In this document: positions 3-37,688 of the stretch, piece by piece
Layout: each line of letters begins with the position of its first letter
Numbering within the stretch: position 1 is the stretch's first letter
NCBI GenBank assembly: GCA_047445235.1
Contig: JBLGEO010000045.1
Location: 1 to 40,275 of the forward strand
Direction: 5' to 3'
DNA from: Candidatus Dojkabacteria bacterium
GTDB taxonomy: Bacteria; Patescibacteriota; Dojkabacteria; J137
DNA: 40,275 bases
Notes under the pieces: model-generated
The model's input: the letters and a program-made list of their open reading frames with translations, nothing else
Databases searched by the model: none
Told to the model about the DNA's origin: nothing
Translations under genes and position numbers: made by a program

Positions 3-1268
3 GTTCAAGATAAATATGATATTAATGATGATTCTGGAAGGTTTATTGAGATTGGTAATAATGTGTTTATGCAAAATAAATTAGATGCAAATCTAAAGTG
101 GCAAACTCTTCCACAAAAAAACATAGATTTTGGTGGAGGTTTTGAAAGAGTTGTAATGATTGCACAAGGTAAAACAGATATTTACGAAACAGATATTTAC
201 CAACCAATTATAAAAAGTATTGAAGGTGTTTCTGGAAAGAATTACAAATCTACAGACTTGTCATCCCGAGCGGAGTCGAGGGATAACGAATTTACGGCAG
301 CATTTAGAGTTATAGCTGACCATGGTAGAGCAGCAGCATTTATACTCGCTGACGGTGTAACACCTTCTAATAAAGATCAAGGCTACATTTTAAGGCGGTT
401 TATTAGAAGACTTGTAAGGTTTGGTAAAAAGTTGGGAATCGAAGAGGATTTTACTTCAGAAGTTGCAGAAGTTGTAATAGAGACAATGGGATATGCTTAT
501 CCTCATTTGGAGACAAATAGAGAAGCAATACTTGAAAAGATCGAAAAAGAAGAAAAAGTATTTAAGCAAACTTTAAATAAAGGTTTAAAGTTCGTTGAGA
601 CATTTAAAGGTAAAGGAATTAGTGGTGCAGAAGCATTTAACCTATATGAGACTTATGGATTTCCATTAGAGTTAACTCTTGATGAATTAAAAATTGACGA
701 AAAAACTGCAGAAAAGATTACAGAAGATTTTAAATCAGAAGAAAAGAAACATAGAGAGAATTCTAGAGCAGGTGCAGAGCAAAAGTTTAAAGGAGGTTTG
801 GCAGATAGTTCTAGAGAAACGACTAAACTGCATACTGCACACCATTTACTATTATCTGCATTACAGAGGATTGTAAATCCGAATATTAAACAAAGAGGAA
901 GTAATATTACCGCAGAAAGATTAAGATTAGATTTTAATCTAGATAGGAAACTCAGTGACGAAGAATTAAAGGAAGTTGAAGACTTGGTTAATAAAAAAAT
1001 TGAGGAAGAACTTCCTGTAACCAGACAAATGATGAACAAAGAGCAGGCAGAAAAGATAGGAGCTCAAATGGAATTTGGACAAAAGTATGGTGATGTTGTT
1101 TCAGTTTACTTAATGGGTAAGGGCGACGAGTATTTCTCAAAAGAATTCTGTGGAGGCCCACATGTAGAAAACACTAAGGAACTTGGGGAAGGTGGGAAGG
1201 AATTTAAAATTATTAAAGAGGAAAGTAGTGGCTCTGGCATTAGGAGAATAAAAGCAGCATTAGTTTAA
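3..1268 (+). CDS. alaS: Alanine--tRNA ligase, short form lacking the C-Ala domain (5' end lies outside the window)
   Basis: The frame is open from base 3 (VQDKYDINDDSGRFIEIGNNVFMQ). Motifs: IADHGR, GVTPSNKDQGYILRR, LYETYGFP, and editing-domain Zn motifs HTAHH and EFCGGPHV. The protein ends right after GIRRIKA. Confidence 0.95.
   Translation, partial: VQDKYDINDDSGRFIEIGNNVFMQNKLDANLKWQTLPQKNIDFGGGFERVVMIAQGKTDIYETDIYQPIIKSIEGVSGKNYKSTDLSSRAESRDNEFTAAFRVIADHGRAAAFILADGVTPSNKDQGYILRRFIRRLVRFGKKLGIEEDFTSEVAEVVIETMGYAYPHLETNREAILEKIEKEEKVFKQTLNKGLKFVETFKGKGISGAEAFNLYETYGFPLELTLDELKIDEKTAEKITEDFKSEEKKHRENSRAGAEQKFKGGLADSSRETTKLHTAHHLLLSALQRIVNPNIKQRGSNITAERLRLDFNLDRKLSDEELKEVEDLVNKKIEEELPVTRQMMNKEQAEKIGAQMEFGQKYGDVVSVYLMGKGDEYFSKEFCGGPHVENTKELGEGGKEFKIIKEESSGSGIRRIKAALV
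259..284 (+). repeat. TGTC-tagged REP-like palindromic element inside alaS
   Basis: TGTCATCCCGAGCGGAGTCGAGGGAT is 25/26 identical to the reverse complement of intergenic 37556-37581. It is a GC-rich island in an AT-rich gene and translates as LSSRAESRD. Confidence 0.9.
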
Positions 1269-1270
1269 AA

Positions 1271-1798
1271 ATGAATCTAAAATTATTTAACTCAAGTCCT
1301 TTAGAAGTAGGAGAGATAAATCTAAAAAAAAAATTCGATCTCAGTGATGATGAAATAGTAGAATTAGATAGGTGCCTAATGCTCGAATCAATGAATTTAG
1401 AAGATTTAATATGTCTTTTTGATAAAGAGATTTTAACTAGTGAAAATACCCTTGCACTAGGACTATGGAATATATTTTCTAAAAATAATCCAGATATATC
1501 AGTATTTAATCTCTTAAAAAAAAGACTTGGTTTTAAAGATATTGAAGATGTTTATAGTGAATCTTCAATTTTTATAAGCATTAGAGAATATATTTGGGGT
1601 TGTGATAGTATAGAAGACGCAATTGAGAGAAGGATTAAGTGGAAGAAAAATATAATAGTATTTTTACCAAACGATTTATTTTCTTACTACAATAAAAAAG
1701 ATCATATTGGTATAACTGCTAGTGAAGTTTACAGGATTTTAGAATGTACTAAAATTATAAATGGGAATGTTTATTTTGTCAGAGGAGTATATGATTGA
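1271..1798 (+). CDS. Hypothetical protein
   Basis: 175-aa ORF starting 2 nt after the alaS stop and overlapping the next start. No recognised motif. Confidence 0.65.
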   Translation: MNLKLFNSSPLEVGEINLKKKFDLSDDEIVELDRCLMLESMNLEDLICLFDKEILTSENTLALGLWNIFSKNNPDISVFNLLKKRLGFKDIEDVYSESSIFISIREYIWGCDSIEDAIERRIKWKKNIIVFLPNDLFSYYNKKDHIGITASEVYRILECTKIINGNVYFVRGVYD

Positions 1799-2093
1799 AT
1801 ACAAAGCAATAGCAGCAATCTACGGATTTATATTTGGATGCATTATAGGAAGTTTTCTAAGCTTAGTCTTAGATAGACTTCCTCGAGGCGAATCCATTAT
1901 TTCTCCGTCATCTCATTGCCCTAAATGTAATACACCATTACGATGGTATGATAATATTCCAGTTTTTGGATATATTCACTTACATGGGAAGTGTAGAAAC
2001 TGTGGGTCAGAGATACCTTTGAGAGACTTCTTAGTTGAAACTGGATTCGGATTTATTTTTGCTATTCTTGCCTTCTTAGTATTATTCAATTAA
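1791..2093 (+). CDS. Prepilin peptidase A24 N-terminal (Zn-binding) domain protein, lacking the catalytic region
   Basis: GSFL...RLPRGES...SHCPKC...WYDNIP...GKCRNC...VE. The ATG at 1791 is preceded by AGAGGAG and is preferred to 1761. About 100 aa. Confidence 0.85.
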   Translation: MIEYKAIAAIYGFIFGCIIGSFLSLVLDRLPRGESIISPSSHCPKCNTPLRWYDNIPVFGYIHLHGKCRNCGSEIPLRDFLVETGFGFIFAILAFLVLFN

Positions 2094-2182: not shown

Positions 2183-3064
2183 CTAAAGATTTACAATCAT
2201 AATACTCCTTTCATGACCATGCTTCTGATAGTCTAAATTTGCTAACTCTGCATCTAGTTTTTCCAAAGATGCCAAAGAATTCTCTTTTGAACAAGTTTTT
2301 AAAACCTCTGGGAATTTTTCAGTATTCATTGTTTTTATAAAACCGTCAGAATAAATTACAATTGTGTCAGTCTTACTTATATATACATTACCAAAGTATA
2401 GAAAATTTAATGAAATTGGCTCTCCTGTTAGTGAACCGAATCCAACACACTCATCATTTTGAACCTGTTTAGGATTATTTCTAAATTGTTTTCTAACCAA
2501 AATTCTACCCTCAGGTTTATTCCAATTAAAAGTCTTTAAGTATGGATTAGTATCACTAAAAAAATATTTCTCAAAAACATCTACCGAGTTGGGAGTATTA
2601 AATTTCATATTCCAGTTTTCATCATAGACTCTAACACCACAATCTCCAATTGCTCCCCATAAGAGGCTATGTTCGTTTATAACAACTCCAGTTGCAACAC
2701 AAGCCCAGAAGTCATGGTCTAAATAGTCTGGTTTTGGATTATTGGTTTCGTTTAATTCTTGAATTTTTCTATTTGCAGTTACAAAGGCTGTTTCGACATT
2801 ATCTAAAGAAACTTCTTCTTTACTACCCAAGCTATATACAAAACTTTGAGTAAAAGTATTTGCAGATATTCTTGCAGGACTTGGTTTTGGATATGCTTTT
2901 TGCTGTTCCTCAATTGAAACTGCTGAGAAATCAGGGATACCTATTGGATCTCTTGTAATTCCATCCGCAATGGCAAAGATATTGCCCTCATGGCGAATAG
3001 AGTCTTCTTGCTCTTTCAGCTCTTTATATTTAAAGTCCGGAAGTTGTAGTTTTAAAACTTGCAT
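2183..3064 (-). CDS. PP2C/PPM-family phosphatase-like protein
   Basis: Motifs FAIADG, GAIGDC and IVIYSDG appear in PPM order. Confidence 0.75.
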   Translation of the reverse strand: MQVLKLQLPDFKYKELKEQEDSIRHEGNIFAIADGITRDPIGIPDFSAVSIEEQQKAYPKPSPARISANTFTQSFVYSLGSKEEVSLDNVETAFVTANRKIQELNETNNPKPDYLDHDFWACVATGVVINEHSLLWGAIGDCGVRVYDENWNMKFNTPNSVDVFEKYFFSDTNPYLKTFNWNKPEGRILVRKQFRNNPKQVQNDECVGFGSLTGEPISLNFLYFGNVYISKTDTIVIYSDGFIKTMNTEKFPEVLKTCSKENSLASLEKLDAELANLDYQKHGHERSIMIVNL

Positions 3065-3067
3065 ACA

Positions 3068-4300
3068 CTATTGTAACCTTTCTGCAGCTTGTTTGGATTT
3101 ATCTAATTCGTATTTACTCGGAGTTGCGCTTGTGTAAATGATTTGCCTATTTCTTTTTTGAAATTCTTCAAATTTTAGAGGTCTGTTATCTAATGCAGAT
3201 CTCATTCTAAAACCGTAGTCTACCAGATTTGTTTTTCGAGATAAATCACCATTAAACATTCCTCCTATCTGTGGAACTGTTATATGTGACTCATCAATAA
3301 TCGTCATATAGTCATCTGGAAAGTAGTCTAGTAGGGTGGAAGGAGCTGTTCCAATAGGTCTTCCATCAATATATCGAGCGTAGTTTTCAATTCCCTTGCA
3401 ATAACCAGTTTCTTCAAGCATTTCCAAATCGTAATTCACTCTTTGTTTCAATCTAGCTGCCTCAATCATTTTTCCTCTATCGTTAAAATCTTTAACTTCT
3501 TTTTCTAGATCGTCTCTAACTATTCCAATAGCTCTTTTAAGTTTTTCTTCTGGACTTACATTATGTTTAGCAGGAAAAATTGTGATTTTATCTACTTTAT
3601 CCAAAAGTTCTCCGCTAATTGGATTTATTAATCTGATTGATTCTAATTGTTCTCCAAAGAATTCCAACCTAACAGCCCTATCGTCTGAAGTTGTAAGGTT
3701 AATATCCACACTATCCCCTCTAACTCTATACGTTCCTGTAGCAAAGTCGTTATTAGTTCTATCGTATTGCATATCTCTTAGTCTTGTTAAGACTTTCTCC
3801 CTATTAAATTCTTTTCCTACTTCTAAATCGACGCTCATAGATTCGTAATCGTCCGGATTACCTAAACCATAAATACAGCTGACTGTTGCAACAATAATTA
3901 CATCTTTTCGAGATAAAAGCATTTGAGTTGCAGAGTTTCTATAACGCTCTATAACTTCGTTAATATCTGAGTCTTTTTCTATATATAAATCTCTTGATGG
4001 AACATATGCTTCTGGTTGGTAATAATCGTAGTAACTTACGAAGTATTCCACTGCATTTTCTGGAAAGAACTCCTTGAACTCAGAGTAGAGCTGCGCTGAA
4101 AGTGTTTTGTTGTGTGACAGAATTAATGTTGGCTTTTGAATATTTTGAATAATATTTGCCATTGTGAAAGTCTTTCCTGTTCCAGTAGCTCCAACTAAAG
4201 TTTGATGTTCTAAGCCTGCTTCAATCCCTGCACTTAGTGCTTCTATAGCATTTGGCTGATCTCCTCCTGGTTTGTAGTTTGAGTGAAGTTTAAAATTCAT
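3068..4300 (-). CDS. uvrB: Excinuclease ABC subunit B, N-terminal part only (410 aa; split or truncated)
   Basis: GDQP, Walker A GATGTGKT, beta-hairpin YFVSYYDYYQPEAY, GIENY, DESH, DNRPL, SATP. It stops shortly after SATP, whereas full-length UvrB is about 660-670 aa. Confidence 0.92.
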   Translation of the reverse strand: MNFKLHSNYKPGGDQPNAIEALSAGIEAGLEHQTLVGATGTGKTFTMANIIQNIQKPTLILSHNKTLSAQLYSEFKEFFPENAVEYFVSYYDYYQPEAYVPSRDLYIEKDSDINEVIERYRNSATQMLLSRKDVIIVATVSCIYGLGNPDDYESMSVDLEVGKEFNREKVLTRLRDMQYDRTNNDFATGTYRVRGDSVDINLTTSDDRAVRLEFFGEQLESIRLINPISGELLDKVDKITIFPAKHNVSPEEKLKRAIGIVRDDLEKEVKDFNDRGKMIEAARLKQRVNYDLEMLEETGYCKGIENYARYIDGRPIGTAPSTLLDYFPDDYMTIIDESHITVPQIGGMFNGDLSRKTNLVDYGFRMRSALDNRPLKFEEFQKRNRQIIYTSATPSKYELDKSKQAAERLQ

Positions 4301-8311: not shown

Positions 8312-11300
8312 ATGAAAAAGTTAAATTTACTTAAAAATAATTTCGTCGCTCAAATAAGAAATTTTGTCCAAAAACTTAAAAATGGTTTGAGTAACTTTAG
8401 AGGAATTCTTAACAAAGAGTTTTTATTAAGACACTATAAGGTACTTTCCTTTCTAGTTGTAGTTCTTGTAGCTAGTTTACTAGTGTTCATATTTAGACCA
8501 AAGACACCAGTTAATTTAGATTTTAACTTTACAGATAAACCAATTGCATTCAGTGATATTAAAAAGTCTGCATCAGTAGAGTTAACTGAAACTGAAAATC
8601 AATATGTAGCTCATCCAAATGGAGATTTGGTGCAGTATTCAAAATCCGGTCAATCTACAAACGGTAGTGTATCTCTTTTAAATTTAAACGCTAAAAATAA
8701 ACCATCTTTAGGAATTCACTTTACAAGCAGTGATAATTTAAATTCTACTTTAGATGGATCTAATGTAAGTTATCAAGGTATAAATTACACAATAAAATAT
8801 TCCACTTTCGATAAATTCATAAAGGAAGATATTGTTTTATTAAATCCAAACTCGGCAAAAGAATTTAAATTTGAATTAACTTCTTCAGAAGATTTAACTT
8901 TAACAAAGACGAACGATGGAGGTATCAATGTAGAACAAAATGGCAATTTGGTTTATTACATTTATCCGGCAACTGCTAAAGACTCCAACGATAAGCAAAT
9001 TGATTATACTTACGAAGTTGATGGTAAATCGATTACGTTAAAGCCATTAACATTAGCTCAATTTGAAAATGCAAAATATCCAATTACTATAGACCCTACA
9101 ATAGCTTGGTCTTTTTCAACATCAGTTGAATATACATTATCTGACGAAGCTAAAATTGAAATACAGAGTGGCTTAGTTAGATTAAAAGATAATTCTGGAT
9201 ATGCAACAGATGATCCTTATGTAATAAATAATAATGGTGTTACATACAATACTTTATCCGGCTTTAGCGAAATACTTGGGGGGAATAATCAAGGTAGTAT
9301 CCAATATCAATTAACTAATAACGGTACTGATTGGTATTGGTGGAATGGAAGCGCTTGGACGGTAACGGTTGCTGGATTTAGTGAATCTAATACAGCAGCA
9401 GTTGTTAATACAAATATTTCAACTTTTCCTACAGATATAGGAATAGGTAAACTACAATTTAAAGCATTTTTGCATGCAGCAACATCTGCAACTCAGGTTG
9501 AACTTTCAAACGTAAATATTATTTACTTTTCTAGCACAGCTCCAACAACTACTTCGCTATCACAAAATTCTGGAAGTTCCGTTGGTGGAAATGACATAAC
9601 AATTAATGGCTCTAACTTTGATGATGCATTAAAGACAAGTACATTCACATATACCGGAGCTGATCAAGCATATACAGTTCCTGCTGGTGTAACATCTATT
9701 CATGTAAAAATGTGGGGAGCTGGAGGAGGTGGTGGTACCAGAGGATCAGGTTGGGATTTCGGTTACGATGGTGGTGCAGGTGGTTATACAGAAGCAGATA
9801 TTGCAGTAACACCTGGTCAAACATTAAATGTAATGGTCGGAGGAGGTGGTTTTAGTGGTTTAACTACCGCAACAGGATATAGTTACGGAGGCGGAGGGCG
9901 AAACTGTGGAGGATCTGATTGTTCTTATGGTGGACAAGGAGGAGGAAGATCTGCTATTCAGATTTCAAGTGAAGATATTCTAACTGCAGGTGGTGGTGGT
10001 GGTGGTGGTTCTAGTGTTACTTCATATACAGAAGGTTTTGGTGGTGCTGGTGGTGGAACTACAGGGCAAGACGGAGTAGAAGTTGGGAATGCTACTACAG
10101 CTGGTACTGGTGGAACACAAAGCGCCGGTGGTACTGGTGGTGTAACTAATGTAGGCTATCCTGGAACTGCCGGTTCTAAATATTTAGGTGGTTATGCAGC
10201 TGGACAATCATATGGATCAGGTGGTGGTGGTGGATGGTATGGAGGAGGTGGTGGTGGTTACTTAAACAGTTTTATGGGTGGCGGAGGAGGTGGTTCAAGT
10301 TACATTGCAGGAGCAGGAGTAAGTAATGCAAGTACTATTGCAGGAAATTTGAACAACCAACCTAAAAGTGATGACTTTGATAACAGTGGTGCTGGAAAAG
10401 GAGGAGCAACGAGAGTAGATGGTTCTCATGGTAGAGTCATTATTAATGCGATTACTAAATCTGTAAAATTTGGGAATACAGAAGCACATAACATAAGGGT
10501 GACAGACTCAAATACTTTGATAGTAACTGTGCCTCAACATACACCTGCAACTGTGGACGTAACTGTAACAAATTCCGATGGGCAAATTGCGACCCTTAGT
10601 AATGCCTATACTTTTAATGCACCTTCTATTACTTCACTATCTAGTACTTCTGGTTCAAGTGCTGGAGGTAATGATGTAACGATAACTGGTACAGACTTTG
10701 ACTCTAAAGTAGCTAGTCAAACATTTACGTATACTGGATCAGATCAAATTTATACAGTTCCACAAGGTGTTACCTCAATTCGTGTAAAGATATGGGGAGG
10801 TGGAGGAGCTGGCGGTAATCCTGGTTCTTGGACTCAAGGATACCCAGGTGGTGGCGGTGGATATACAACAGCAGATATAGAAGTTACTCCAGGTCAGAAC
10901 TTAAACGTTATGGTGGGAGCAGGTGGTTCACATACAGCCAACAGTTTATATAATTATGGTGGTGGTGGGCCAAACTGCGGAGGTACTGATTGCCAATACG
11001 GTGGACAAGGAGGAGGAAGATCTGCTATTAAATATAATAATCAAGATCTCGTTACAGCCGGCGGTGGTGGTGGTGGTGGATCTTCTTTGCAACACAACTA
11101 TAGTGAGAATGGAGGTGCAGGAGGAGGGCCTACTGGAGATAATGGTTTAAACGGTGAAAATTCAACCTCTGGTGGTAGAGGTGGTACTCAGAGTGCAGGA
11201 GGTGCAGGAGGTGTTGCAGGTAATATAGGTGCACAACCTGGTCAAAAATATACTGGTGGAAGACCAAATTCACCTTACTCTTATGGAGGATCTGGTGGTG

Positions 11301-14300
11301 GTGGTTACTTTGGAGGTGGAGGCGGAGCATATTATAGTACAACTATGGGTGGTGGTGGTGGTGGTTCTGGTTACATTGGTGGATCTGGAGTAAGTAATGG
11401 TACTACAATTATTGGTACCTCTAAAGTGCAGGCGAATCCTGAGGATCCATTAAATAGCGGAGCCGGTGGTGGTGGAAATCAGTCTGTAGATGGCACATCA
11501 GGGAAAGTTGTAATTGACATCTTACCTAAATCAGTAACTTTTGGTGGCGTACCAGCAACAAATATTAGATATACAAATGCTACTACGATTGTTGCAACTG
11601 TACCTATTCATGCAGCGGGAACTGTAGATGTAGTTGTAACAAACCCAGACGGACAAAGTTCTACAATAACAAATTCGTATACATTTATTGGACCGATTGG
11701 AACATCAGTATCTCCTAATACAGGTTCTACTGTTGGAGGAACAGATGTAACAATAACTGGGACGAATTTTAGTAAAAGTGTTTCTACTATGACATTCTCT
11801 TTCAGTGGTGGTGATCAGACTTATACAGTTCCTGAGGGAGTAACATCGATTAAAGTAAAGGTATGGGGAGCAGGTGGAGCTGGTGGAAAAGTTGGAGGTT
11901 GGGGATATGGAGCACCTGGAGGTGGAGGTGGATATACAACAAGTGATATTACAGTAACGCCTGGTCAGACATTAACCGTAATGGTTGGAGGTGGTGGTTC
12001 TGCAGCCGGTATTGATCTTGATACTTACGGTGGTGGTGGACGTACATGTACTAGAGCAGAGTGTGTTTATGGATCTCAAGGTGGAGGTAGATCTGCAATA
12101 AGAGTAAGTGGTGAAGATATTTTAACTGCTGGAGGAGGTGGTGGTGGTGGTTCTACACGAACACCAAGTTATAGTATGGCTGGAGGAGCTGGAGGTGGAG
12201 ATGTTGCACAAACAGGTTTCTCAGATGAATATGCATCTGGCGCAGGTAAAGGGGGAACGCAAATAGCTGGTGGAGCTGGTGGTGTTACACCTTCCGCAAC
12301 AGGTGACGCTGGTTATAAATATTCTGGTGGATGGGGAGCACTTGGTTTTCCTTATGGAGGATCTGGAGGTGGTGGATGGTATGGTGGTGGAAAAGGAGAA
12401 TACTACGAGCCAAATACAATGGGTGGTGGTGGTGGTGGTTCTGGGTATATTGGTGGCGCTGGGCTTGTTAATCCCTATATGTATACTGGGGATAAAACTA
12501 CCCAAGCATTCTCAACAGATCCTGATAACGGTGGGGCTGGTGCAGGAGGTGCTGCGTCTACTGATGGACAAAATGGAAGGGTAGTTATTTATGCATTGCC
12601 TGTAAAAGTAAAAATAGGTGGTGTAGAGGCAACTAATATAAACTATGTAAACTCAACAACTATTACTGCAACTTTGCCACAGGGAACACTTGGTGCAAAG
12701 GATGTAGAAGTAATAAACCCTAATGGAGATTCTTCGACAATAACGAATGGTTTCACATATGCATCACCTAATCCAACATCTGTCACTCCATCAACGGGAT
12801 CAACTTTTGGAGGAGAAACAATTACTATTACAGGGACAAATTTTGGGAATTTAACGCCAAAAACTTATATATCAACTGGAACAGATCAATCCTATACAGT
12901 TCCTGCCGGAGTGACTTCTATCAGAGTCAAAATGTGGGGAGCAGGTGGAGGTGGAGCGGGGATTGGAAGTTGGAACTTCGGGTATTCAGGTGGAGGTGGT
13001 GGATACACTACAGCGGATGTCGCTGTTACCCCTGGAGACGTATTAACAGTTGTTGTTGGTGCAGGGGGTATTGATGGTCAATTAGGAGCTACAGGTAACA
13101 TGTATGGAGGCGGAGGAGCTGCATGTATTAGTAGCGATTGTAGATATTCTGCTGCGGGAGGTGGACGATCATCGATAAGATTTGGTGGTGAAGATATATT
13201 AACTGCAGGTGGTGGTGGTGGTGGTGGTTCTGCAAGAGCATTGGATGTTAGCCAGAGTGGTGGAGGTGGAGGTGGTACTTATGGTGAAAATGGAAAGTCA
13301 GACTATCCAACTGCCAATGGTCTTGGTGCAACTATTCTAAATGGAGGACTCGGTGGAATTGCTAATACTGCAAATGGTAACTCAGGTACTAAATATCAAG
13401 GAGGAGCAACTCAATTAAATTCATATGGAGGAGGTGGTGGTGGTGGATACTACGGTGGTGGGGCTGGAGGTTTCTTTGAAATTGCTAGTTCTAGTCGAAT
13501 GGGTGGTGGTGGCGGTGGTTCCGGATATATTGATGGGACTGGTGTATCAAAAGGTTTAATGATTGCTGCGATTGGAACTACTCAAGCAAATTCTTCAGAT
13601 GTTGACAATGGAGGTGCTGGACTGGGTGGTGCACAGTATACTGCAGGAAAACATGGAAAAGTAATCATTACACCTTTGGGTATAAATGTTTCTGTTGGTG
13701 GTGTTACAGCAAGAGATATAAGATTTGTTAGTTCTACAACCCTAACTGTAGTAACACCTACCAATTCACCTGGTGTTAAAGATGTTGTAGTTACTAGTCC
13801 TGACGGATATTCTTCAACACTTGTTGGTGGATATACATATGTGGGTTCAAGTTTAAATTCAATCACTCCTAACTTTGGTACAACTAATGGAGGAACAAAC
13901 GTAACAATTGATGGAGATAATTTAAGTGCAGGCCTCGAGACAAAAACTTATGACTTTACTGGAAGAGATCAGATCTTTATTGTTCCTGAAGGAATAACAT
14001 CGGTATTTGTAAAAGAGTGGGGAGCAGGAGGAGGTGGTGGCGATAATTTAAATTGGGGGTATGGTTATGCGGGAGGTGCAGGTGGATTTACAACGAGTGA
14101 AGTTACTGTTACACCTGGTCAACAACTTACAGTTATGGTTGGTTCTGGAGGTGTACCTGGTAGAACCTCAAATGCCTATAGTTTCTATGGAGGCGCAGGA
14201 AATAACTGTGTAGCAGACTGTAATTACGCTGGGCAAGGAGGAGGAAGATCTGCAATTAGAGTTAGTGGTGAAGATATTTTAACTGCTGGTGGAGGTGGAG

Positions 14301-17300
14301 GTGGAGGTACTAGTCGTTCTAACATACTTAGACAAATTGGAGGAGCCGGCGGTGGACTTTTAGGTCAAGATGGTATATCTGACTCAGTTTTAACTGCTGG
14401 TGGTAAAGGTGGTACTCAAAGTTCTGGTGGTTCAGCTGGAGTTGCAGGAGGTGGAAATGGTACTGCAGGTTCAAAATATACTGGAGGGAATAGTTACTCA
14501 GCTTACGGTGGATCAGGTGGAGGAGGTTGGTATGGTGGAGGAGCTGGATCTTATCAAGAACCAAATACAATGGCAGGAGGAGGAGGAGGTTCTGGATATA
14601 TTGGCGCACCCGGGTTAGTTAATCCGTTTACAATAATGGGTGATTACAATGTTCAACCATTCTCAACAGATACAGATAATTCTGGTGCAGGAGCTGGAGG
14701 AGCTGCTAATGTTGCAGGTAAACCAGGAAGGGTTGTAGTTACAACAGCACCAAGTTCTCTATATTTTGGTTCTGAAAAGGCAATAAATCTAAAATTGGTT
14801 GATGTGCATACTCTAACCGGTACTACTACACCAAATACAGCTGGTGCTAAAGATGTTTCTTTATTCTTGCCTGACGGAAACTCAGCAACTTTGAGTAATG
14901 GATTTACATTTATACCACCACCAGTTATAACTTCAATTAACCCTGCATTTGCAGCTGAAGCAGGCGGTACACAAATTGTTATTACTGGAACTGGCTTTAT
15001 AGATACACCAACAATTACATTTGGTGGCGTATCTGCAACATCAGTTACTTTTGTTAGTTCAACTACCTTAAACGTAGTTGCTCCAGCTCACGCATTAGGA
15101 AACGTAGATATTGTAATTGCCAACCCAGATGGAACTTCGAGTACATTCACAAATGGGATCCAATATATAGTAGCTCTTTCTAAAATTACATCAATTGATC
15201 CAACAGTAAGTCCTGTAGGTGGTGGCACAAATGTAACAATTACTGGTGAAAACTTTGGCCCAGCGATCAGTAGTTTAAAGTTTGGTAATACTGATGCAAT
15301 TAATCCTGTGTACGTGAATTCTACAACAATTACTGCAACAACACCTGCCCATTCACTTGGCCTTGTTGATGTGGTACTAAATCAGGAAGATGGTCAAACG
15401 TCAACACTTGCTAATAGCTTTACTTTTGCAAATCCACCAGTCATAACCAATATTAGTCCTACCAATGTAATAAAAACTGGCGGTTCAACAATAACAATCA
15501 CTGGTACAAGCTTTGAGCAAACACCGCAAGTTAAATTTGGTGGAGTGAATGCGACCTCTGTATTATATGTAAATAGTACAACTCTAACAGTTGTAGCTCC
15601 TGCACACTTTTTAGGACTAACTGATGTTCAAGTTATTAATCCAGATACTTTAGCTGTGACTTACACGAATGGAGTTAACTATGTAGAGGCACCTCCATCT
15701 ATAACGAGTGTTACGCCAAATTCAGGTCCAACTTTAGGTGGAACAGATGTAACAATTAGTGGAACAAATTTTTTAAATGGGCAAGGTACAGTTGGCAATG
15801 GTAGAGATGGTTCTGTAATAGTAGCTTCTAACAAGAATATAAATACTGATATAATCTCAGGATCAAGAACTTGTGCTGATGCAATTAACTATTCAGTAAC
15901 TGGATTAAGCTCTACACAGGCCACACTTTCAACTTCTCCTACAAATGATTGCTTAGCAGTTGACGATGAAGTGATGCTAATAAATTTACAAGGGACTAAT
16001 TCAAACAATACTAATGTAGGTAATTACGAATTCTTTTATGTATCTGCAATTACTGGGAACTCAGTAGAATTTTCAAATATAAAAACTAAATTTTACGGTG
16101 ATGGTGCAAATGATGACAATAATATAGGTACAGCTTCAACTAACCAAAAGGTAATGTTACAAAGAGTTCCTAACTACCAAAATGTTGCTGTTAATGTAGG
16201 TTCTACACTTACTTCAAGTGGTTGGGATGGCACAAAAGGTGGAGTGCTCTTTTTTAGAAATAATGGTACTCTAACAATAAATGGCTCAATTAGTGCTTCA
16301 GGAAAAGGTTATAGAGGAGGACAAGGACTAACAAATGGTTCAGATTATACTCAAGGAGAAAGTTATACCGGAGTAGGTAGTGCCGCAACTACAGCTAATG
16401 CTGGTGGGGGTGGAGTTGGTACAGGTGAAGGATCTGTTTTTAACGGAACTTCTTCTTCAGGTGGTGGAGGTGGTTCTTACGGAACTGCTGGGACAGACGG
16501 TTTTCAGGCAAGTGGAACTACTCAAGGTAGTGCTGGTAATACATATGGTACTAATACATTGGATAAATTATTCTTAGGATCAGGAGGTGGTGGAGGTGGT
16601 GCAGTAAATTTTGGTTCAGGTTCAGGAACTTTTGGTGGAAATGGTGGAAATGGAGGAGGGATAGTAATGATAAATTCTGCAAACATTGGCATAGGTGGAA
16701 CTATAGGCTCAAATGGATCAAATGGTATTAATGGTAATTCCAATGGTGGTTACGGAGGCTCTGGTGGTGGAGCTGGATCCGGAGGAAGTATCTTCATAAG
16801 TTCTTCTTCTTTAGATTTGGGTAGTTCTAACGTAATTGCAAATGGTGGTTCAAAGGGTATCGGTGGTGCTGCTGGCGAAGCAGGTACAGATGGTGGAGAT
16901 GGTGGTGCGGGTAGAGTTGCAGTATATTCAGATTCGATTACTGGTTCAACTAGTCCAAGTGCTTATCAAGGTTCGATTGGAAATAGTATTTCTAGCATAG
17001 CTGTAGATTTTGACGGAGTGTCGGCAACAAACATTACGTATGTAAATTCAACTACTTTAACTGCAACTACACCAGCAAATGCAGGTGGTCCAGCAGATGT
17101 AAAAGTTACGAATACTGATGGTCAATCGGATACTTTACACAATGGATTCTTGTACGCATCGGATAGATATTCATTTATCTCTCCAGTATTAAACATTAGG
17201 GCAACTGAACCTGGAACAATGGTAGTCCAAGCTCAAGACGTATTAGGAAACCCAATACTTGTAGACACAGATACTACTCTAAGTTTATCTTCAACTAGTA

Positions 17301-20300
17301 CCTCTGGCTTTTTTGCAATTGACTTAAACGAAAATGAATCAACAAGATGGGATTACAATTCAGTTGTAATACTTGCTGGAACATCTACATCAACGTTCTA
17401 TTACAAAGATAATCAAAAAGGAACCCCAACAATTACTGCGGAGCCTACTGAAGGAGCTATTAGTATCCCAGCAACACAAAATGCCGCGATCAAAAGTAAA
17501 TTTCAACTTTTACTTACAGGAATCAGTGATCCAATAAAAGTTGGAGTACCTAGTTCTGTAACTGTAATCAGCGTTGACTACTTAGGTAATCCACAACATG
17601 ATTATCAAGGAACTGTTCAGTTCAGTTCTACAGATCCAGCTACGTTGTTTCCAGCAAACTTTACATACCAGTTGTCAATGCTTGGTGAACATACTTTCGT
17701 TAATGGAGTCACACTAGTAACTCAAGGAGACTTCTGTGTATCTGTAACAGACGTTGATGATGCTGATATTACGGGTAGTCAATGTAATATTACAGTTGAT
17801 CCACCGGACGTTGGTACAATTGCTAAACTAAAAATACTAAACGGAACTCAAACAATTCCTCTAGATGGAATTACAACAGAAATTACAGTTCAAACTCAAG
17901 ATACAAATGGAACTGCAATTCCTGTTGGTGTTATAACACCTATTTACTTTTACACAAATTCGAGCACAGGTGAATTCTCAACAGATGGAGTGACTTGGTC
18001 CAATGGTCCATTTACATCACAAATATCGGCTTATGCAACATCAAAGAATTTCTTTTACAGAGATCCAACACTTGGTGCACACATAATAGTTGTTAGAGAC
18101 GATTCAGTTGGAAACAGTAATGGTACAGGTACAAATGTTGGCTGGGAAAACGATACCGCAACAATAACAACTGCAGTTGGATCTGCAAATAAATTAGCAC
18201 TATATGGTGTTCCAACATCGTTAACAGCTGGAGATGTAAGCAGTGCAATTAGTATTTCAATGCAAGATGTAGATGGAAATAACCTAACAGCAACTCAAGA
18301 TAAAACAGTTTATTTGACTGCAAATCCAAATACAATACTATTTTCTGTAGATGGAGTGAGTAGTTTTACCAATAGTCTTTCTACAAAGATCAAAACAGGA
18401 GACTTGCTAACACAAGTTTATATTAAAAGTTTAGTAAAGGGATCAACAGATATTACTTTATCAGATGCTAATCCAGCAGACGGAGATACTGGCTTAGTGG
18501 ATAGTGTTAAAAATATAACAATAAATGCTGCTGCTGCAAATAAACTTATTCTAATAGATGGACCTTCACAAGTTATTGCTGGTGATGTTTCAAATGTATT
18601 TACAGTACAATTACAGGACATTTATAACAACCCTGTTAGTCCAATAAGTAACTTTCCAATTTACCTATCAACAAACAATTCAGATGGAGTATTCTCTGCA
18701 ACATCATTTGGAACAACAATTACAACATTAAATATTCCAGCAGCAAGTGACAGTGTTAACTTCTACTTTAAGCAAAATAAATACTTTACTACTCAAACAA
18801 TTAATATTGCTGACACGATAGGTGGATTCGGTGCAGGAGGATTAACAGATGCACAAACAACAATAGATATATTGCCAGGAACAATTTCTCAATTAGGAAT
18901 TCTTGAGAGTTCACCATATTCCGCAGTAGCAGGAGTTGAAGCTGGGCCATTCACAGCAGTTATAAAAAATACGTTTAATGTAGAAGTGCCAACTAGCCAA
19001 GATATTCAACTTTACTTATATACAAATTCAGTAGCAGGAACAAAAGAATTCTCTATATTGAGTAGTCCTTGGACTCCTATTACAAGTTATTTATTACCAA
19101 CTTCACAAAGTAGATTTACTTTCTTCTATAAAGATACAAAGGCTGCAACTACAACAATAAAAGTATCCGATGATAATAACCCTTCATTTGAATTCGGGTT
19201 AACCAATGCTTCAATAGATTTAGCGATTGCAGCAGCTACACCAAGTGCAGTTAAGTTTACATCTAGTCCACAAACAGCTGACGCTGGAGTAGCTACAGGA
19301 GCAATCACAGTAAGCCTTTATGATCAATATAATAACGTAGCAAAATCAGCAGCAGGAACAACAGTTAATTTGGCAAGTACCTCTGGAACAGGAAGATTTG
19401 ATACTGCAAGCAATGGTGCATTTGATGGTAGTATTACAAGCGTAAATGTAAATACAGATCAAAGTGTTGCAACTTTCTACTATAAAGATACAACTGCAGG
19501 AACGCCAACAATCACATTAACTTCAAGTGGTTTAAGTGGCGACACTCAAGATCAAACTATTGTTTATGGTAATGTAACTAGCTTTAACTTATCGAGTGTA
19601 AGTTCTACCGTAACTGCTGGTGTAAGTTCAAGTGCAATAACTCTAAAGACTTTCAACGCTGGTAATGTTAATGTTCCTGTGCCTTCAGACTTTACAGTTA
19701 ACATAGCAAGTAATAACATAACTGGCAAATTTGATACAGCATCGAACGGCGGCTTCTTAGGAGTAGTTACAAGCGTAACTGTGTTGGCAAATCAAAGTTC
19801 AGTAGATTTCTATTATAAAGATTCATTAGCTAGTAATGTAACTATTACTGCTAGCAAAAATACTTTCACGAATGCAACATTTAACTTAGCAGTGACAGCA
19901 GCAGCAGCAAGCAAGTTAGCATTTAAAGACTCAAGTCTAGCTGCATTAAATCTTGGACAACAGAGTGCTGCAATATTTATTCAAAGTCAGGATTCTTTTG
20001 GAAATCAGTCAGTAGTTACAACAGATACAAATGTATATTTACATTCTAATTCTGCTAATCACCAATTTTTTAACCAATCTAATTCTGTAGTAACAAATGT
20101 TGTCTTAACAAATGGAAGTTCAGAAACTCAATTTAGTTACAAAGATTTTGTAATAGGGACATATACAATTACATTGAGTGATTTTACTTATCCAGACTCA
20201 CCTGATGTAGGTTTAACTAACGCTTCAAAGGATATAACTATTACAAATGGAGCACCTGCTAAATTTCAACTAACAAAACTTTCTCAAGACTTACTAGTTG

Positions 20301-23300
20301 GTACACCTGAATTAGTAACATTGAAATTATTAAATGCATATGACCAAGAAGTTCCTGCTACGTCAGATACTCAAGTTAATTTATCTTCAACATCTGGAAC
20401 GGGATCGTTTGATACTGTAAGCAATGGAAGCTTTAACCTAAACTCAGTAACAGTTTTGAACGGAGATTCAACTGCAACTTTCTATTACAAAGACACAACA
20501 GTAGGAACCCCAACAGTAAGCGCGGCTCGAAATGGATTCACAACAGGAACAACAACATTTAACTTGCAACCAAGTACAGTATTTAGATTAGTATTCGATT
20601 CTGTGCAGCAAAGTGTTGTTGCTGGAGTATCCTCCAACGTATATATTATTAAATTTAGAGATCAGTACGGGAATTATACTGTCCCACAAAGTCCATTTAC
20701 TATTAACTTAGCTTCACAAGAAGCAACTGCACAATTTGCAACTTCTAATGTTGGCCCTTGGAATGTTACGTCAATAGATGTAAATATAAACGATTTAGAT
20801 GCTAGATTCTTTTATAAAGATACAGTTGCTGGAATAAAGACTTTAACCGCTTCTTCAAACTTACTACAAAGTGGAACCCAAAATGTAACTATAACAGCAA
20901 ATACTCCTACAACAATGAAATTTGTACCAAACGTTGGACAAACTGTAGCAGGTCAAATTGCATCAGGAGCTATTACAGTTGTACTTTACGATCAATACAA
21001 TAACATTGCTAAACCATCAAGTAGTGTAACTTTGAACTTGACATCTGATAGTAGTCACTATGAGTTTTCAAAAACTGTAGTTCCTTGGACACCAGTTACA
21101 AGTGTAGATATTACAAGTTCAGAATCACAATCGGTGTTCTATTACAAAGATTGGATAGTTGGAACACCAACAATCACTGTTACAGATAACGCAAATGTTA
21201 TTGACCCTATTAACTTACAATTTACAATAATTGCTAGTGATGCATCTAAATTAGTAATTAGTACAGCACCACAAACAACCATTATTAATACTCCAACAAA
21301 CAATATTACATTCTTTGTGGCAGACATAAATAATTACAAGACAGCATTTAACAGCGATTCACAGGTGTTTGTATCTAGTGATAGTGTTGGCGGACAGTTC
21401 TCAAAAGACAATGGAGAAACTTGGACTACAACTCTAACATTTGATATTCAGGCAAGCACAGATACAGAACGAAGTTTTATATATGTAGATTCGGTAGAGG
21501 GTAACCCACAAATAACAATTTCTAGTTCAGGTTTAACATCTGCTACACAAATTGAAACAATGATAACTGGAACAATTAATAAAGTTGTAATAGGTGGAGA
21601 TGGAAATGTTGCGGCCGGAACTCCACTTGCTTTAAATATTCAGACCTTAAATAATGCTGATTTAGCTGTCTCTGTAAATGAAGATACAATATTAACTCTA
21701 TTATCAACAAGTACAACTGGTGAGTTCTCACTATCAAACTCAGTCTGGACTCCAATTACAGAATTTACATTAGTTAAATGGCAGAATCAAAAAGTAATCT
21801 ACTATAAAGATACTATCTCTGGTACAGCTACTATTACAGTTAACGCTAAGATTAGTCAAGGGTGGACTGATGGCACAAAACTTATAGATGTAACTTCAGC
21901 TGCATATAGTAGAATAATATTCTTACAACATCCCGCTAGTGTAGTTGCAGATACTTTATCAACCCAATTTACTGTCCAAACAGTTGATCAGTTTGGTAAT
22001 TTAGTTGGGACATCAGACAGAACAGTTTACATTTATGTTCCAGCATCTGGAAACATAAGTTTAAACGGGACTACTTTTGTCGGGACAACAACGGCATTAA
22101 CATTACTTGATGGTGATTTTAGTGGAAGCTTTTATTATAAAGATGTACTACCTGGGAATAAAGTTATTACTGCAAGCGACCAAACACCTTTAGATGCACC
22201 AGATACAGGAGTTATTAATGCTACTGCTAACATTAATGTATTAGGCCAAACTGTTGCAGGTATAAGAGTGACAACTACTGCTCAGACTGGTTCATTAAAA
22301 TTAACAGCTGGTCAAATTAGTAGTGTAATAACAATTGAGGCGTACAAAGCAAATAACTCCGCTGCTATTGTCGGTACACCATTACAAATCGACCTTTCTG
22401 CTATACCATCTTCAGTTGGTAAATTTACAGCAACATCTGATGTTAGTGCAAATGCAATTACATCTGTAACAATTTCAACTGGTTCTACAACAGCTAACGT
22501 TTACTTTACAACAAACGTTGCTAATACATATACATTAAACTTTGATTCAACTGCAATAACTGGGGATACTCAACAAATTGAGTTCCAGGCAGCAACTGCA
22601 AGTAAGTTAGTATTCCGAACATCTGTACAATCTAAAGGTGCAGGAGTAGAGTCCGATCAATTTAGAGTTAGTTTACAAGATCAATTTGATAACTTAGCTA
22701 CAGAAGCTACAGACACTACGTTAATATTAAGTTCTACCAGTAGTACTGGATTATTTTCTGTTCTAAATGGATTAGCCTGGGTTGATACAAACCAAATTAC
22801 TTTAAGTGCTAGTACATCCGATATTTACTTTTACTATAAAGATACTGTTGCTGGTACTTCTGTATTAACAGTAGATGAGACTCCAAGTCTAGGAATTACT
22901 GCAGCTACTCAAAACTTTACAGTTACATCTGGTAGTGTTGCATCCATTAGATTCTTAACAACCACAAATACTTTACAAGTAAATCAGCCTTCTAACGCAA
23001 TGACAGTTTCTGTATATGATGTATTTGGTAACCAAACAACAACACAAAGTGACTTAAATATTTACTACTATTCAACTTCTGGCACAGGATCTTTTGCATC
23101 AAGTAATTTATTTAGTTCCACAATTACAAGTGCAATAATTACTGCAGCAACATCAAGTTCAACATTCTATTACAAAGATACAACAAGTAATAATCCAGTA
23201 ATTACAGTAAGTGATCAACCAAGTTTAGATAGTCCTGATATTGGAATTACAAATGCTACTCAAACTCAAACAATTATCTTAGGTGCAGTAGCTAAGTTAA

Positions 23301-26300
23301 GATTTGTTAACTCAAATTCATCCGTTCAGTCTGGAGATGTAAAACAATTACAACTAAGACTTCTAAACGCATATGATGGACTAACTCAGACTCCTGGTCA
23401 GTTAACAGTTTATTTCTCTACCACATCAAGTGGATTATTCTCATTAGGTCAGACCTTTGGAGTGGGGGAGTCAATTGATGCATATTCAATTCCTGAAAAT
23501 CAGAGTGGAGTAGACTTATACTATAAAGATATCCAAGCAGGTAGTGTAACAGTTACTGCTTCAGATTTTTCAACTCCTGCAGAGATTCCAGACACAGGAA
23601 TTACAAATGCTACTCAAACATTCACAGTACAATCGGCTAATTTACAAAATTTGGTATTTATAACTACAGCACAAAGTTTAGTTGTAGGACAAACATCAAA
23701 TGTTATGACTGTTCAAGCTAGAGATGTATTTGGTAATATTGCAACTGTTACAAATATAACACCATTTTACTTGTATACTAATTCTGTAACAGGTCAATTC
23801 TCATTAAGCACAGACTTTAGTGCAGGTCATTTGGTTACTCAATCATCTATGTCTGCAGGAACTTCATCGGTTTCGTTCTACTATAAAGATTTAACTTATG
23901 TTGCACCAAGTTCTAATCCAACTATTACAGTAAGTAATCAATTTCCTAAACCAGTAAGTGATGATTCTATTATCGATGCAGTTCAAATCGAAACAATTAA
24001 TGCAGGTAACATATCTCAAATTACTTATACATCTTCCGATTTAGGTACAACAATTGCAGGTACACCAGCTGCACCAATTACTGCAATATTTAAAAATCAA
24101 TATAATGTAGAAATTCCATTAACATCTACTAAAACTCTTTACTTCTTTAGTTCGTTAGGAGGAGGGCAGTTTGCAAGTTGGAACGGAAGTTCTTGTGGTA
24201 GTTTTGGAATTAGTTCAATAGACATTACAGCACCAAACTCAAGATTTATATTCTGTTATAAATCTTCACAAAGTGGAAGTTCAACAGTTACTGTTTCAGA
24301 TACTAATGTTGTAACACCAGATACCGCTTGGACAAATGCAACTGGAGTGATTGTTGTTGACCCTGGAATAATTACTCAAATAGTATTTAATAATACAAAC
24401 CCACAAGAGATTGTAGCAAGACATACTTCTGCAGAATTAAAGATAGAAACTAGAAATCAATATGGTAATGCTACAGCAGTTACATCTAACAAAACTATTT
24501 TCTTGAGGTCTTCATCTTCAACTGGAGAGTTTGCATTATCGCCTGGTGGTTCTTGGGGAATTAATTTTGCAACAATTCCAAACGGACAGAGTGGAGTTTC
24601 TACTTACTATAGGGACTCAACAGCTACAACTGGAACTCCACTAACAATTACTGCAGCAGATTCTCTTCCATTAATTCCAGACACTGCTTGGACAAATGGA
24701 ACTCTAAATATAAATATTTCTCAACAAGTAGTTCAAAACTTTTTGGTAACAAACATTTCAGATCCACAAGTACAAGGTAATTCTAGTTCCGTAATTGTAG
24801 TTGCAAGAGATTCGGAAAACTTTACAGTAGATTGGTATACAGGTACTATTCACTTTACATCTTCAGATTCAAACGCAATTTTACCTGCTGACTATACATT
24901 CACAGCTGCAGATAAAGGCTTAAAGACTTTTGTTAATGGAGTTGCATTCGCAACAATTGGTGAGCAATACGTAAGGGTTACTGATGGCAATGGCGTAACT
25001 GGTGAACAAATAAACATAACTGTGAATACAAACCCAGCTGGACCAATAACTCAAGTTAGATTTAAAGATGCTACATCACCAACAATAGTACAAACTAATG
25101 TTGCCTCTACACCATTTACTGTTCAATTAAGAGACTCTAATGGGCAGGGTGCTAATGCTGGAGTTGGAGGATTCCAAATACGAGTAAGTTCAACATCTGG
25201 TACAGGACAGTTCTCATCTAGTGCAAGTGGGCCATGGAGTAGCTCTGGAGTGTTTACAATTCCTCAAAACTTTAGTGTAGTAAATGTTTATTATAAAGAT
25301 TCAGCATCAGGTAACTTTACATTAACTGCAAGTGATTGGATTTCAAATACAGATGATATTGGAATATCTAATGACACGTTATCTATAATATCAAATACAG
25401 TTCTAGTTATAGTAAATACACAATTGCAAGTTAACAATAACTCACACCAATATGTAAACTCACCAGTAATATTTGCAAAAGATGATAGCGGAAGTTTTAC
25501 TGCAAAGTCTGATTTTCAAATTTCAACTACAGATGCACTTGCTGGTACTCCTAAAGCATCTAATCTAACAATCAATTGGAAAAACCCAGCAGGCGTAACT
25601 GTTCAAACAGGTACTGTTACAAATACAAGCTCTACAGTATTTACAGTTCCTGAATTTACAGGAACAGTTGCTACTGGAAACTATACTTTAGAAATTGTTG
25701 CTGCAACAGTAGATACAAGCTTCAATGTAACAAGTAGTACAAATGTACCAGTGTCTGGTTGGACTGCAAGTGTTAATTATAATCCAAACAATATAAACCT
25801 AGGACAACCAGTGGCTTTTACTATTCAAACAAAATTAGATGGAGTATTTACAGATCCTACAAACTTAACTGTAAATGTAAAAGATAATAACGGAACAGAT
25901 GTTGTTGGCGCAGCGTATTCAAAAAATCTTTCAGAATTAACCAAAGATTCGACAGGCAATTACTCTGGAACATTAACTTCAGTTAATTTATTAGCTGGAC
26001 AAGCATACTACTTATATACAAGAATATTTGATTCAAATACATTAGCTGAAGATAATAATAACGATATATTCTTCCAGAATAATCCAACAATAGCACCAAA
26101 GAACTTTAGAATCGCAAAGACTTTAACTTCAACAGCTCCTGATGCAGAAACTTATAACTTAAACTTTAACTGGGATCTATCTGATTTCGCAATAACTTAT
26201 AACTTATACAGAAGCACTAATAAATTTAATGTACTATTTTCAGATACTTGTTCATTAGACGATATTAAATTTGGCCATAGGTTCGGCGAAGTTGGTGCAA

Positions 26301-36955: not shown

Positions 36956-37546
36956 ATGGCAACTTCAATTAAATCTACTAAACAATACCCAGAGAAGATC
37001 TTTATAACACAATCTGACTTTATAGATTGGATGGAGAAAAACCATGATAAAGAAGATGGTGTTTGGATAGTAATGTATAAAAAAGCATCTGGAAAACAAT
37101 CAATTAATTATGACTTGGCTCTTGAAGTTGCTCTTTGCTACGGATGGATTGATGGAGTTTCAAATAGAATTGATGAAGAGAAATATAAACAAAAATTTAC
37201 TCCCCGAAGAGAAAAAAGTATTTGGTCTAAAGTAAACCGAGAAAATATAGCAAGGCTAACAAGCGAAGGCAAAATGAAGCCATCAGGAATTGCAGAAGTT
37301 GACAGAGCTAAAGCAGATGGGAGATGGGATGCCGCTTACGATTCTTCTGTAACAATGAAAGCTCCTGAAGATTTTTTAAAAGAACTTTCTAAGGATAAAA
37401 AAGCTGAAGAGTTTTATAAGACTCTAAGTAAAACAAATCTCTACGCAATTCACTTCAGATTACAAACCGCAATAAAGCCAGAAACAAGAGCAAATAGAAT
37501 GAAAATACTTCTAGAAATGCTTAATAAAGGAGAGAAGTTCCACTAA
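36956..37546 (+). CDS. YdeI/OmpD-associated family protein
   Basis: ALEVALCYGWIDG, FTPRR..SIWSKVN, G.M.PSG, DGRWDAAY, KPETRANR. Confidence 0.92.
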   Translation: MATSIKSTKQYPEKIFITQSDFIDWMEKNHDKEDGVWIVMYKKASGKQSINYDLALEVALCYGWIDGVSNRIDEEKYKQKFTPRREKSIWSKVNRENIARLTSEGKMKPSGIAEVDRAKADGRWDAAYDSSVTMKAPEDFLKELSKDKKAEEFYKTLSKTNLYAIHFRLQTAIKPETRANRMKILLEMLNKGEKFH

Positions 37547-37555
37547 CCTATAATC

Positions 37556-37612
37556 ATCCCTCGACTCCGCTCGGGAAGACACGACGTGTCATGGTGAGCG
37601 GAGTCGAACCAT
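37556..37612. repeat. Inverted dimer of TGTC-tagged REP-like elements
   Basis: Minus-strand copy at 37556-37581 (TGTCTTCCCGAGCGGAGTCGAGGGAT) and plus-strand copy at 37587-37612 (TGTCATGGTGAGCGGAGTCGAACCAT), 5 nt apart. Confidence 0.9.
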
Positions 37613-37688
37613 GGTTGTTTTTCACTAATCTTACGCCACTCTGTTTTCTTTATAACTAGCTATGAATATAGGTGGGCATTGCCAACCA

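Follow-up and report, generated by a model that had tools for sequence, protein, structure and literature searches.

The window analysed here is the whole 40,275-nt stretch of contig JBLGEO010000045.1 (assembly GCA_047445235.1), derived from a Candidatus Dojkabacteria bacterium. At one end it holds part of alaS, the gene for alanyl-tRNA synthetase (AlaRS), within which a 26-nt repeat unit, TGTCATCCCGAGCGGAGTCGAGGGAT, is read in frame. Two further units, arranged as a head-to-head dimer, lie at the other end (Table 1). The repeat family to which these units belong, and the presence of one of them inside an essential gene, are the subject of this analysis.

Table 1. Repeat units in the 40,275-nt window and the gene that carries unit 1.
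Feature	Positions	Strand	Composition	Context
Unit 1	259..284	+	TGTC tag, arm ATCCC, core GAGCGGAGTCGA, arm GGGAT	in frame in alaS, encodes (L)SSRAESRD
Unit 2	37556..37581	-	TGTC tag, arm TTCCC, core GAGCGGAGTCGA, arm GGGAT	intergenic
Unit 3	37587..37612	+	TGTC tag, arm ATGGT, core GAGCGGAGTCGA, arm ACCAT	intergenic
Head-to-head dimer, units 2 and 3	37556..37622	none	tags 5 nt apart at centre, then TTGTTTTT	
alaS, C-terminal 421 codons	3..1268	+		open at 5' edge of window

When the whole window was searched with the 26-mer at up to three mismatches, a single further match was obtained, namely unit 2, identical at 25 of 26 positions and separated from unit 1 by 37.3 kb. This confirmed the intergenic copy described in the first-pass annotation, which had overlooked unit 3. 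None of 100 dinucleotide-preserving shuffles of the window contained any match at the same threshold. Unit 2 occupies the gap between the open reading frames (ORFs) 36956-37546 and 37851-39131.

Exact copies of the 12-nt core GAGCGGAGTCGA number three in the window. With up to two mismatches, four matches were observed against 0.34 expected, and this count was not reached in any of 100 shuffles. The arms of unit 3 are perfectly complementary and unlike the (A/T)TCCC/GGGAT arms of units 1 and 2; the core is common to all three. By letter count the unit has 58% G+C, while the G+C content of the window ranges from 28 to 45% and is mostly about 33%.

The alaS frame reads through unit 1 without a stop (...EGVSGKNYKSTD-LSSRAESRD-NEFTAAFRVIADH...), and the frame is kept. 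The gene was identified from its own database entry, which carries PF01411 and PF07973, from relatives named alanyl-tRNA synthetase, and from matches of the product to solved AlaRS structures (E 5.6e-45). The in-frame peptide LSSRAESRD was described correctly at first pass; the flanks given for it, SGKNY and FRVIADH, are approximate only, with KSTD following SGKNY ahead of the peptide and NEFTAA standing between the peptide and FRVIADH.

For comparison, 119 AlaRS relatives of near-query length were used (56-74% identity, most of them 633 residues long); one of them, at 65% identity, bears the name Candidatus Dojkabacteria. The segment spanning the site (..SGKxYK-T-DG-KDNEFTAAFRVIADH) measures 38 residues in 114 of them and 45 in the window. 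In the other relatives its length is 39 (two proteins), 36 (one), 46 (P0135) and 53 (P0182). The more distant AlaRS proteins, at about 50% identity or less, lack the insert and are variable in length at this turn, which bears out the earlier statement that the segment is length-variable. On these alignments, LSSRAESRD is a lineage-specific in-frame insertion; as a test suggested at first pass, conservation of the peptide among relatives was sought and is absent.

The insertion site is a hydrophilic turn, YK-T-DG-KDNE, ahead of the conserved FRVIADH helix. In an alignment to the Aquifex structure (chain 3htz_A), residues 258 and 260 flank the insert, which immediately precedes the RVIADH helix; the catalytic domain and the helical tRNA-recognition domain probably join here. 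Since the turn is hydrophilic, rich in Gly, Asp and Asn, and variable in length, the insert most likely lies in a surface turn, as the 3htz_A alignment also suggests. Only one of the unit's six reading frames contains a stop; the other five are open. That alaS remained open is explained by these five frames together with a length change divisible by three.

The repeat family was surveyed with the pattern TGTC-N5-GAGCGGAGTCGA in one genome per bacterial or archaeal species, which yielded at least 127 loci with at least 166 units. Further copies of the motif, whose existence had been put forward as a check at first pass, were accordingly found both in the window (two) and elsewhere (at least 166). 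Of the 127 listed loci, 47 have flanks of 300 nt only. The constancy of tag and core in the 166 listed units was imposed by the search pattern and is not independent evidence; the five bases 3' of the core lay outside the pattern, so that arm pairing was free to vary.

Within this set, the arms were complementary at all five positions in 62 units, at four in 75 and at three or fewer in 29. Stem pairs 2-5 were of Watson-Crick type in 141, 148, 158 and 155 of the 166 units, respectively, with two to four pair types common at each position and 100 distinct arm combinations overall. The base after the TGTC tag was A in 149 units, and the base 3' of the stem was C in 59, A in 47, T in 42 and G in 18. 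Because the arms covary around the core, the unit is a hairpin with a free but paired stem of 4-5 bp, the tag TGTC (usually TGTCA) and the fixed core GAGCGGAGTCGA. The Vienna fold adds an inner 2-bp CG/CG helix with a GAGU loop. The same loci also hold [TC]GTC-tagged hairpins with core variants, such as GAGCGAAGTCGA (six times), GAGCGCAGTCGA (three times) and others.

A covariance model was trained on 61 distinct units, all from other genomes, chosen for a fully paired inner stem; because of this selection for pairing, the model is not itself a covariation test. It scored 45.4 bits at 257-286 (unit 1), 40.1 bits for unit 2 and 38.0 bits for unit 3 (E 1.7e-10 to 2e-8), and nothing above 11.9 bits in the rest of the window. 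No observation speaks for a chance similarity between alaS and the intergenic units, or for descent of the intergenic copies from an ancestral AlaRS segment; either has a negligible probability. Both are refuted by the 0 of 100 shuffles, by the loci elsewhere, and by the absence of the peptide in 114 of the 119 relatives.

The inner arms of units 1 and 2 are identical. Inner arms were shared in 725 of 13,627 comparisons between units of different loci (5.3%), as against 14 of 39 neighbouring pairs at the same locus. Judged from these frequencies, the sharing between units 1 and 2 mildly favours copying within the genome.

Several dense arrangements were seen among the listed loci. On a 1989-nt contig of a Sphingobacteriales bin (L034), four head-to-tail units with a period of 26-27 nt and no spacer occupy positions 1449-1554, just upstream of a GIY-YIG gene, and two more units lie past that gene. 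Six units were counted within 320 nt at L049, and Polaribacter sp. MF5-112 has four loci (L122-L125) within 6 kb, at contig positions 496-502 kb. At L022 and L047, longer repeats of about 125-195 nt each enclose one unit.

According to the host titles, the at least 127 loci belong mostly to Bacteroidota (Flavobacterium, Chryseobacterium, Pedobacter, Algoriphagus, Dyadobacter, Polaribacter and others). The other listed hosts represent about ten further phyla and include Verrucomicrobiota, Acidobacteriota, Eremiobacterota, Planctomycetota, Chloroflexota, Ignavibacteriota-like bacteria, Kiritimatiellia, Neomarinimicrobiota and Cloacimonadota, as well as one Alphaproteobacteria bin and one Desulfovibrionales bin. 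The repeat unit is not lineage-specific and occurs in many phyla. In two G+C-rich Actinomycetota, Nonomuraea (L082) and Nanopelagicales (L084), the arms paired at 0 of 5 and 2 of 5 positions, respectively; these two matches are probably the chance background of a 16-base pattern.

Units are mainly intergenic: in the listed loci with full flanks, 12 of 90 units lay in long open frames, compared with 57% of 450 control positions. These 12 units occupy ten frames, nine of which carry Pfam domains. The unit is internal to a recognisable protein in eight of the ten: a type I methylase, a MeaB-mutase fusion, a GT1 glycosyltransferase, an FAD protein, DnaG, PurL, an amino-acid permease and FdhD. The glycosyltransferase and the FAD protein each hold a pair of units. 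In the RNase HII frame (L010), translation probably starts downstream of the unit. The survival of such in-gene insertions is explained by the five open frames of the unit.

Read-through into units was also noted in database proteins. The gene call of the AlaRS relative P0135 starts 26 residues early, inside an upstream pair of units, and many GIY-YIG entries (among P0255-P0353) end in tails of the ..GFDSAQPD.. type. Such heads and tails are annotation artefacts.

Genes for a possible mobilizing enzyme were sought by a loose motif search and Pfam over 261 kb of the listed loci, followed by a profile built from the four genes found. These four are small GIY-YIG genes (L014, L034, L078 and L089; PF01541, E 4e-17 to 9e-20). 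Three of them are bracketed by units, one on the plus strand to the left and one on the minus strand to the right; the tags point outward, and the spacing is a few to 91 nt. At L014 the right-hand unit is present and the left side is degenerate. The profile search added a gene cut by the locus edge (L097), a frameshifted copy between inverted units (L061) and one weak match.

In total, a GIY-YIG gene of about 100 codons lies beside units in 6 of the 127 listed loci, in five of the six between inverted units. A linked RAYT-type transposase or GIY-YIG nuclease had been suggested as partner at first pass; the nuclease was found in these genomes elsewhere, and neither was found in the window. The nearest solved structures to the unit-flanked nucleases are the UPF0213 proteins 1zg2 (E 3.5e-14) and 1ywl. 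Pfam assigns the nucleases to PF01541 only, and no NCBIfam model matched.

Among 120 database homologues of the L034 nuclease, 29 carry short extensions at a terminus with peptides that only the core can encode (such as ..FDSAQPD.. or ..LSGVE..); the domain bodies, 11,744 residues in all, contain no such peptide. Indirectly, this indicates that the gene adjoins a unit in many further genomes. The contigs that carry close homologues of the unit-flanked protein are in many cases very short (about 0.5-3 kb), and a multicopy element that interrupts assembly would be expected to give this picture.

The same loci bear on whether the unit is a classical repetitive extragenic palindrome (REP) spread by a RAYT, that is, an IS200/IS605-type Y1 transposase, and not by a GIY-YIG nuclease. 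The tetranucleotide tag at the 5' end, the hairpin, the inverted dimers and the mostly intergenic position of the units would all suit such a route, and Di Nocera 2013 (PMC3733652) gives RAYT-flanked REPs as the accepted model for the GTAG class. However, no transposase family, Y1_Tnp included, was detected in the 150 of 376 listed flank ORFs that were scanned (L001-L043, the other 226 being unscanned) or in the 19 window ORFs. The same sample contains GIY-YIG genes with units on either side, and the tag is TGTC, not GTAG. We therefore regard spread by a RAYT as very unlikely. The likeness to GTAG REPs and RAYTs (REPtrons, REPINs) extends to the short tagged hairpin, the inverted dimers and the position of an enzyme gene between copies of its own repeat; the difference lies in the tag and in the enzyme, which for GTAG REPs is a Y1 transposase.

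A closer relationship was seen with the CGTC-tagged REPs, for which the accessible passages of Di Nocera 2013 (PMC3733652) give 8-9-bp stems starting with AT, 4-5-nt loops and a CCA-like tail, mostly in head-to-head dimers and distributed over five phyla. The tag in many of these repeats is "changed to TGTC", CCTC is a further variant of it, and Neisseria dRS3 and the Rickettsia elements RPE-4 and RPE-6 are counted as members. According to the same passages, REPs occur inside genes, tRNA synthetase genes included, so that the entry of palindromic repeats into coding sequences, cited as known at first pass, is indeed established; no dedicated enzyme was found by those authors.

Compared with that description (PMC3733652), the three window units have the unpaired 5' TGTC tag, and the stems of units 1 and 3 start with AT, that of unit 2 with TT. 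The head-to-head dimer (37556-37612), the spread over several phyla and the occasional insertion in genes also agree. Of 39 adjacent pairs in the listed loci, 16 are tail-to-tail, 12 head-to-tail and 11 head-to-head. The 4-nt GAGU loop of the Vienna fold comes with an internal loop foreign to the family description, and the window units have the tails AACG, GATT and GGTT, with no CCA among them.

The second system for comparison is formed by the NTS repeats of Neisseria and the nuclease SsnA, as reported in the accessible text of Chenal 2025 (PMC11893778). SsnA is a 94-residue single-domain GIY-YIG protein that binds the NTS hairpin in single-stranded DNA only and makes its cut just upstream. 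The ssnA gene usually has repeats on both sides (NTS-ssnA-NTS), and strand-specific cleavage is described there only for the Neisseria and Wolbachia enzymes. In the accessible part of the Minerva preprint (10.64898/2026.09.22.753630), SsnA-NTS loci serve as a benchmark only. The present family resembles NTS and the Ssn-related motifs (SRM) in being a multicopy tagged hairpin of wide distribution, with a GIY-YIG gene of about 100 codons between inverted repeats, the last in other genomes only.

The published SRM motif, HGTCWYN(0-2)YYVSBRHN(0-5)WNVSBRGN(0-2)RNCYNB, was compared with the units, and two NTS consensus instances matched it as a control. Five rows of the very large Supplementary Data 4 of the same paper (two Flavobacterium, two Chryseobacterium and one Hymenobacter; PMC11893778) give an SRM enrichment of about 0.6-2 fold with a cd10448-type homologue present. 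These five rows, an indication and not a count, would agree with use of the TGTC/GAGCGGAGTCGA unit instead of SRM in such genomes. By architecture, the unit belongs with the CGTC/TGTC-tagged REPs and the Ssn-related motifs, as a variant.

Most Rickettsia palindromic elements (RPEs) are longer, roughly 100-150 bp, and the unit differs from them in having only 26 nt and adding seven residues. Like them, it is a palindromic repeat that enters ORFs of a small genome without breaking them; in-frame insertion of RPEs in protein genes is mentioned in a background passage of PMC3733652. Searches of the literature for the literal 12-mer, its complement and the RNA forms gave only papers with unrelated titles. 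Searches on palindromic elements in candidate-phyla bacteria, with most subscription journals outside their scope, gave nothing on the TGTC/GAGCGGAGTCGA unit.

The turn that received unit 1 carries inserts in other AlaRS proteins as well. Within the clade, inserts of at least six residues occur at four or five places in AlaRS; at this turn, the only others are those of P0135 (+8, RQAQGDKE) and P0182 (+15, PVVTDVIASEAKQSL). A distant protein, P0022, has an insert of 30-odd residues at the same turn (SRCHCEGEARGNPVTTRNEPDNGIATLRSAPLAMT). All three clade inserts at the turn look like translated units, while inserts elsewhere do not; for P0182 and P0022, the likeness is our own reading of the peptides only.

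In P0135, the extension VLRQAQHDN-L-CHPEPVEGQ precedes the evident true start MKTSQQIR. The inserted peptide of this protein is present twice, once in the upstream DNA, as expected of a dispersed repeat read in frame. A back-translation test for the order tag-stem-core-stem was also tried; it gave 285 matches in 178,959 residues of ordinary AlaRS, was too permissive and was rejected as evidence.

The recurrence at one turn, together with retention of the insert in an essential gene, could speak for an adaptation in which the peptide gives AlaRS a new property, for example contact with tRNA or another protein. Against this stand the 114 of 119 relatives that do without an insert and the inserted peptides themselves (LSSRAES, RQAQGDKE, VIASEAKQS), which are unlike one another in sequence, in length and in apparent orientation. 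What is shared is the site and not the peptide, and the lack of a common sequence points to a tolerant or preferred site, not to a selected peptide. Adaptation is accordingly considered improbable.

Taken together, the evidence makes it highly probable that a unit of a TGTC-tagged repeat family was inserted in frame in alaS as a tolerated passenger. One TGTC hairpin unit would have entered the gene at the turn YK-T-DG-KDNE with a net gain of seven codons, and the peptide is most likely a neutral passenger in a permissive surface turn. As for the means of spread, an Ssn-like nuclease may recognise the hairpin and tag on single-stranded DNA and so disseminate the units, as proposed for NTS-ssnA-NTS, and the source genome would then encode such a nuclease. 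We hold this nuclease-driven route in the Dojkabacteria source organism only tentatively, at somewhat less than even chances.

The first-pass annotation had gone further, to a small mobile repeat family adding peptide to essential proteins of the lineage. The family and the in-frame insertion were upheld. In the window, one protein only is affected; mobility is deduced indirectly, and the family is not special to this lineage.

A number of observations weigh against insertion of a unit of this family, or against its nuclease-driven spread. The net gain over close relatives is 7 codons (21 nt) and not the 26 nt of a clean unit; the GAT that closes the unit falls on the conserved Asp of KDNEF, so that either the unit ends were remodelled or a small replacement is hidden by the alignment. 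No target duplication is visible at 259-284, and the closest AlaRS relatives are only about 74% identical. No Patescibacteria genome is among the 127 listed loci, only six of which show the nuclease, and no GIY-YIG or transposase gene was found in the window by Pfam (19 ORFs) or, for GIY-YIG, by a six-frame profile search. Compared with CGTC REPs, the unit has a stem of 4-5 bp and a 12-nt core in place of 8-9 bp and a 4-5-nt loop (PMC3733652), and the SRM motif of PMC11893778 fits none of the three window units and none of the 166 listed ones. Finally, single units folded no better than shuffles, either as RNA (z -0.73, +0.08 and -0.02) or as DNA (z +0.57 to -0.56). Folding energy was therefore dropped as evidence, and the case for a hairpin rests on covariation.

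The folding result also bears on whether the alaS unit acts as a nucleic acid, either as a single-stranded nuclease site affecting recombination or uptake, like NTS in Neisseria, or as a hairpin in mRNA. NTS repeats modulate transformation through cleavage of single-stranded DNA by SsnA (PMC11893778, accessible text), and the TGTC strand is the coding strand of alaS. On the other hand, an isolated unit is unremarkable in folding energy, the source genome has no known nuclease gene, and NTS is seldom found in genes (2% in N. meningitidis 8013, according to the same text). We judge such a role to be improbable, much as for adaptation, and keep to the tolerated passenger.

A more far-reaching possibility is that the unit and the small GIY-YIG gene form an active, transposase-free mobile element on single-stranded DNA, lying outside the published SRM censuses. 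The identical 12-nt core, shared from Bacteroidota through to a Dojkabacteria-like bacterium, would then point to recent transfer across phyla, and independent inserts at the AlaRS turn in at least three to four small-genome lineages would reflect a target preference and not mere tolerance. This combination is rather unlikely, with a probability well below that given to the nuclease-driven route.

The intergenic dimer starts 10 nt past the stop of the OmdA-like gene 36956-37546. As RNA, the 81-nt stretch 37545-37625 reached -36.4 kcal/mol (z -5.05), with none of 200 shuffles as good; as DNA, it reached -17.9 kcal/mol (z -3.75). The dimer was not called by a simple terminator scan. The hairpin and the T-run suggest that it may help to end transcription of the upstream gene. 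In Rfam, only two tRNAs reached the gathering score in the whole window, and around the dimer no family was matched at E up to 10, the best matches being far under threshold. Nor was any Rfam family matched at E up to 10 in the non-coding stretch of about 230 nt (37623-37850) that separates the dimer from the murA-like gene (37851-39131).

Other features of the window were noted in passing. A uvrB frame, 3068-4300 (-), matches residues 5-410 of UvrB structures of about 660 residues (536 bits) and then ends. The frame 2183-3064 (-), 3 nt from it, has a weak PP2C-like match only (E 0.003), and the C-terminal helicase half does not lie downstream; uvrB may be split or truncated. The 110-codon frame 1761-2093 (+) holds only the N-terminal prepilin peptidase domain (PF06750), with no peptidase A24 domain after it, and overlaps a 175-codon frame without family, 1271-1798 (+); the prepilin peptidase gene may be truncated or frameshifted. 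One open frame of 6281 codons extends over 8312-27157 (+). Its part at 10-17 kb has 43-45% G+C and a strong G-over-C skew (about +0.3), compared with about 33% G+C in the rest of the window, and Tandem Repeats Finder reported no arrays at score 100 or above in this frame.

REPs and RPEs in genes, tRNA synthetase genes included, and the pairing of repeats with nucleases are already in print, and the present result extends that work. New are the core variant outside the published SRM motif, its presence in a candidate-phyla genome and the repeated use of one AlaRS turn. For annotation, it follows that read-through into units yields spurious protein tails and heads, such as the GFDSAQPD tails and the false N-terminus of P0135. 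For the family, tagged hairpin repeats tied to small GIY-YIG nucleases exceed the reach of the published motif, both in sequence and in host range. For the organism, the alaS unit offers a clean, datable example of a short repeat lengthening an essential protein in a very small genome.

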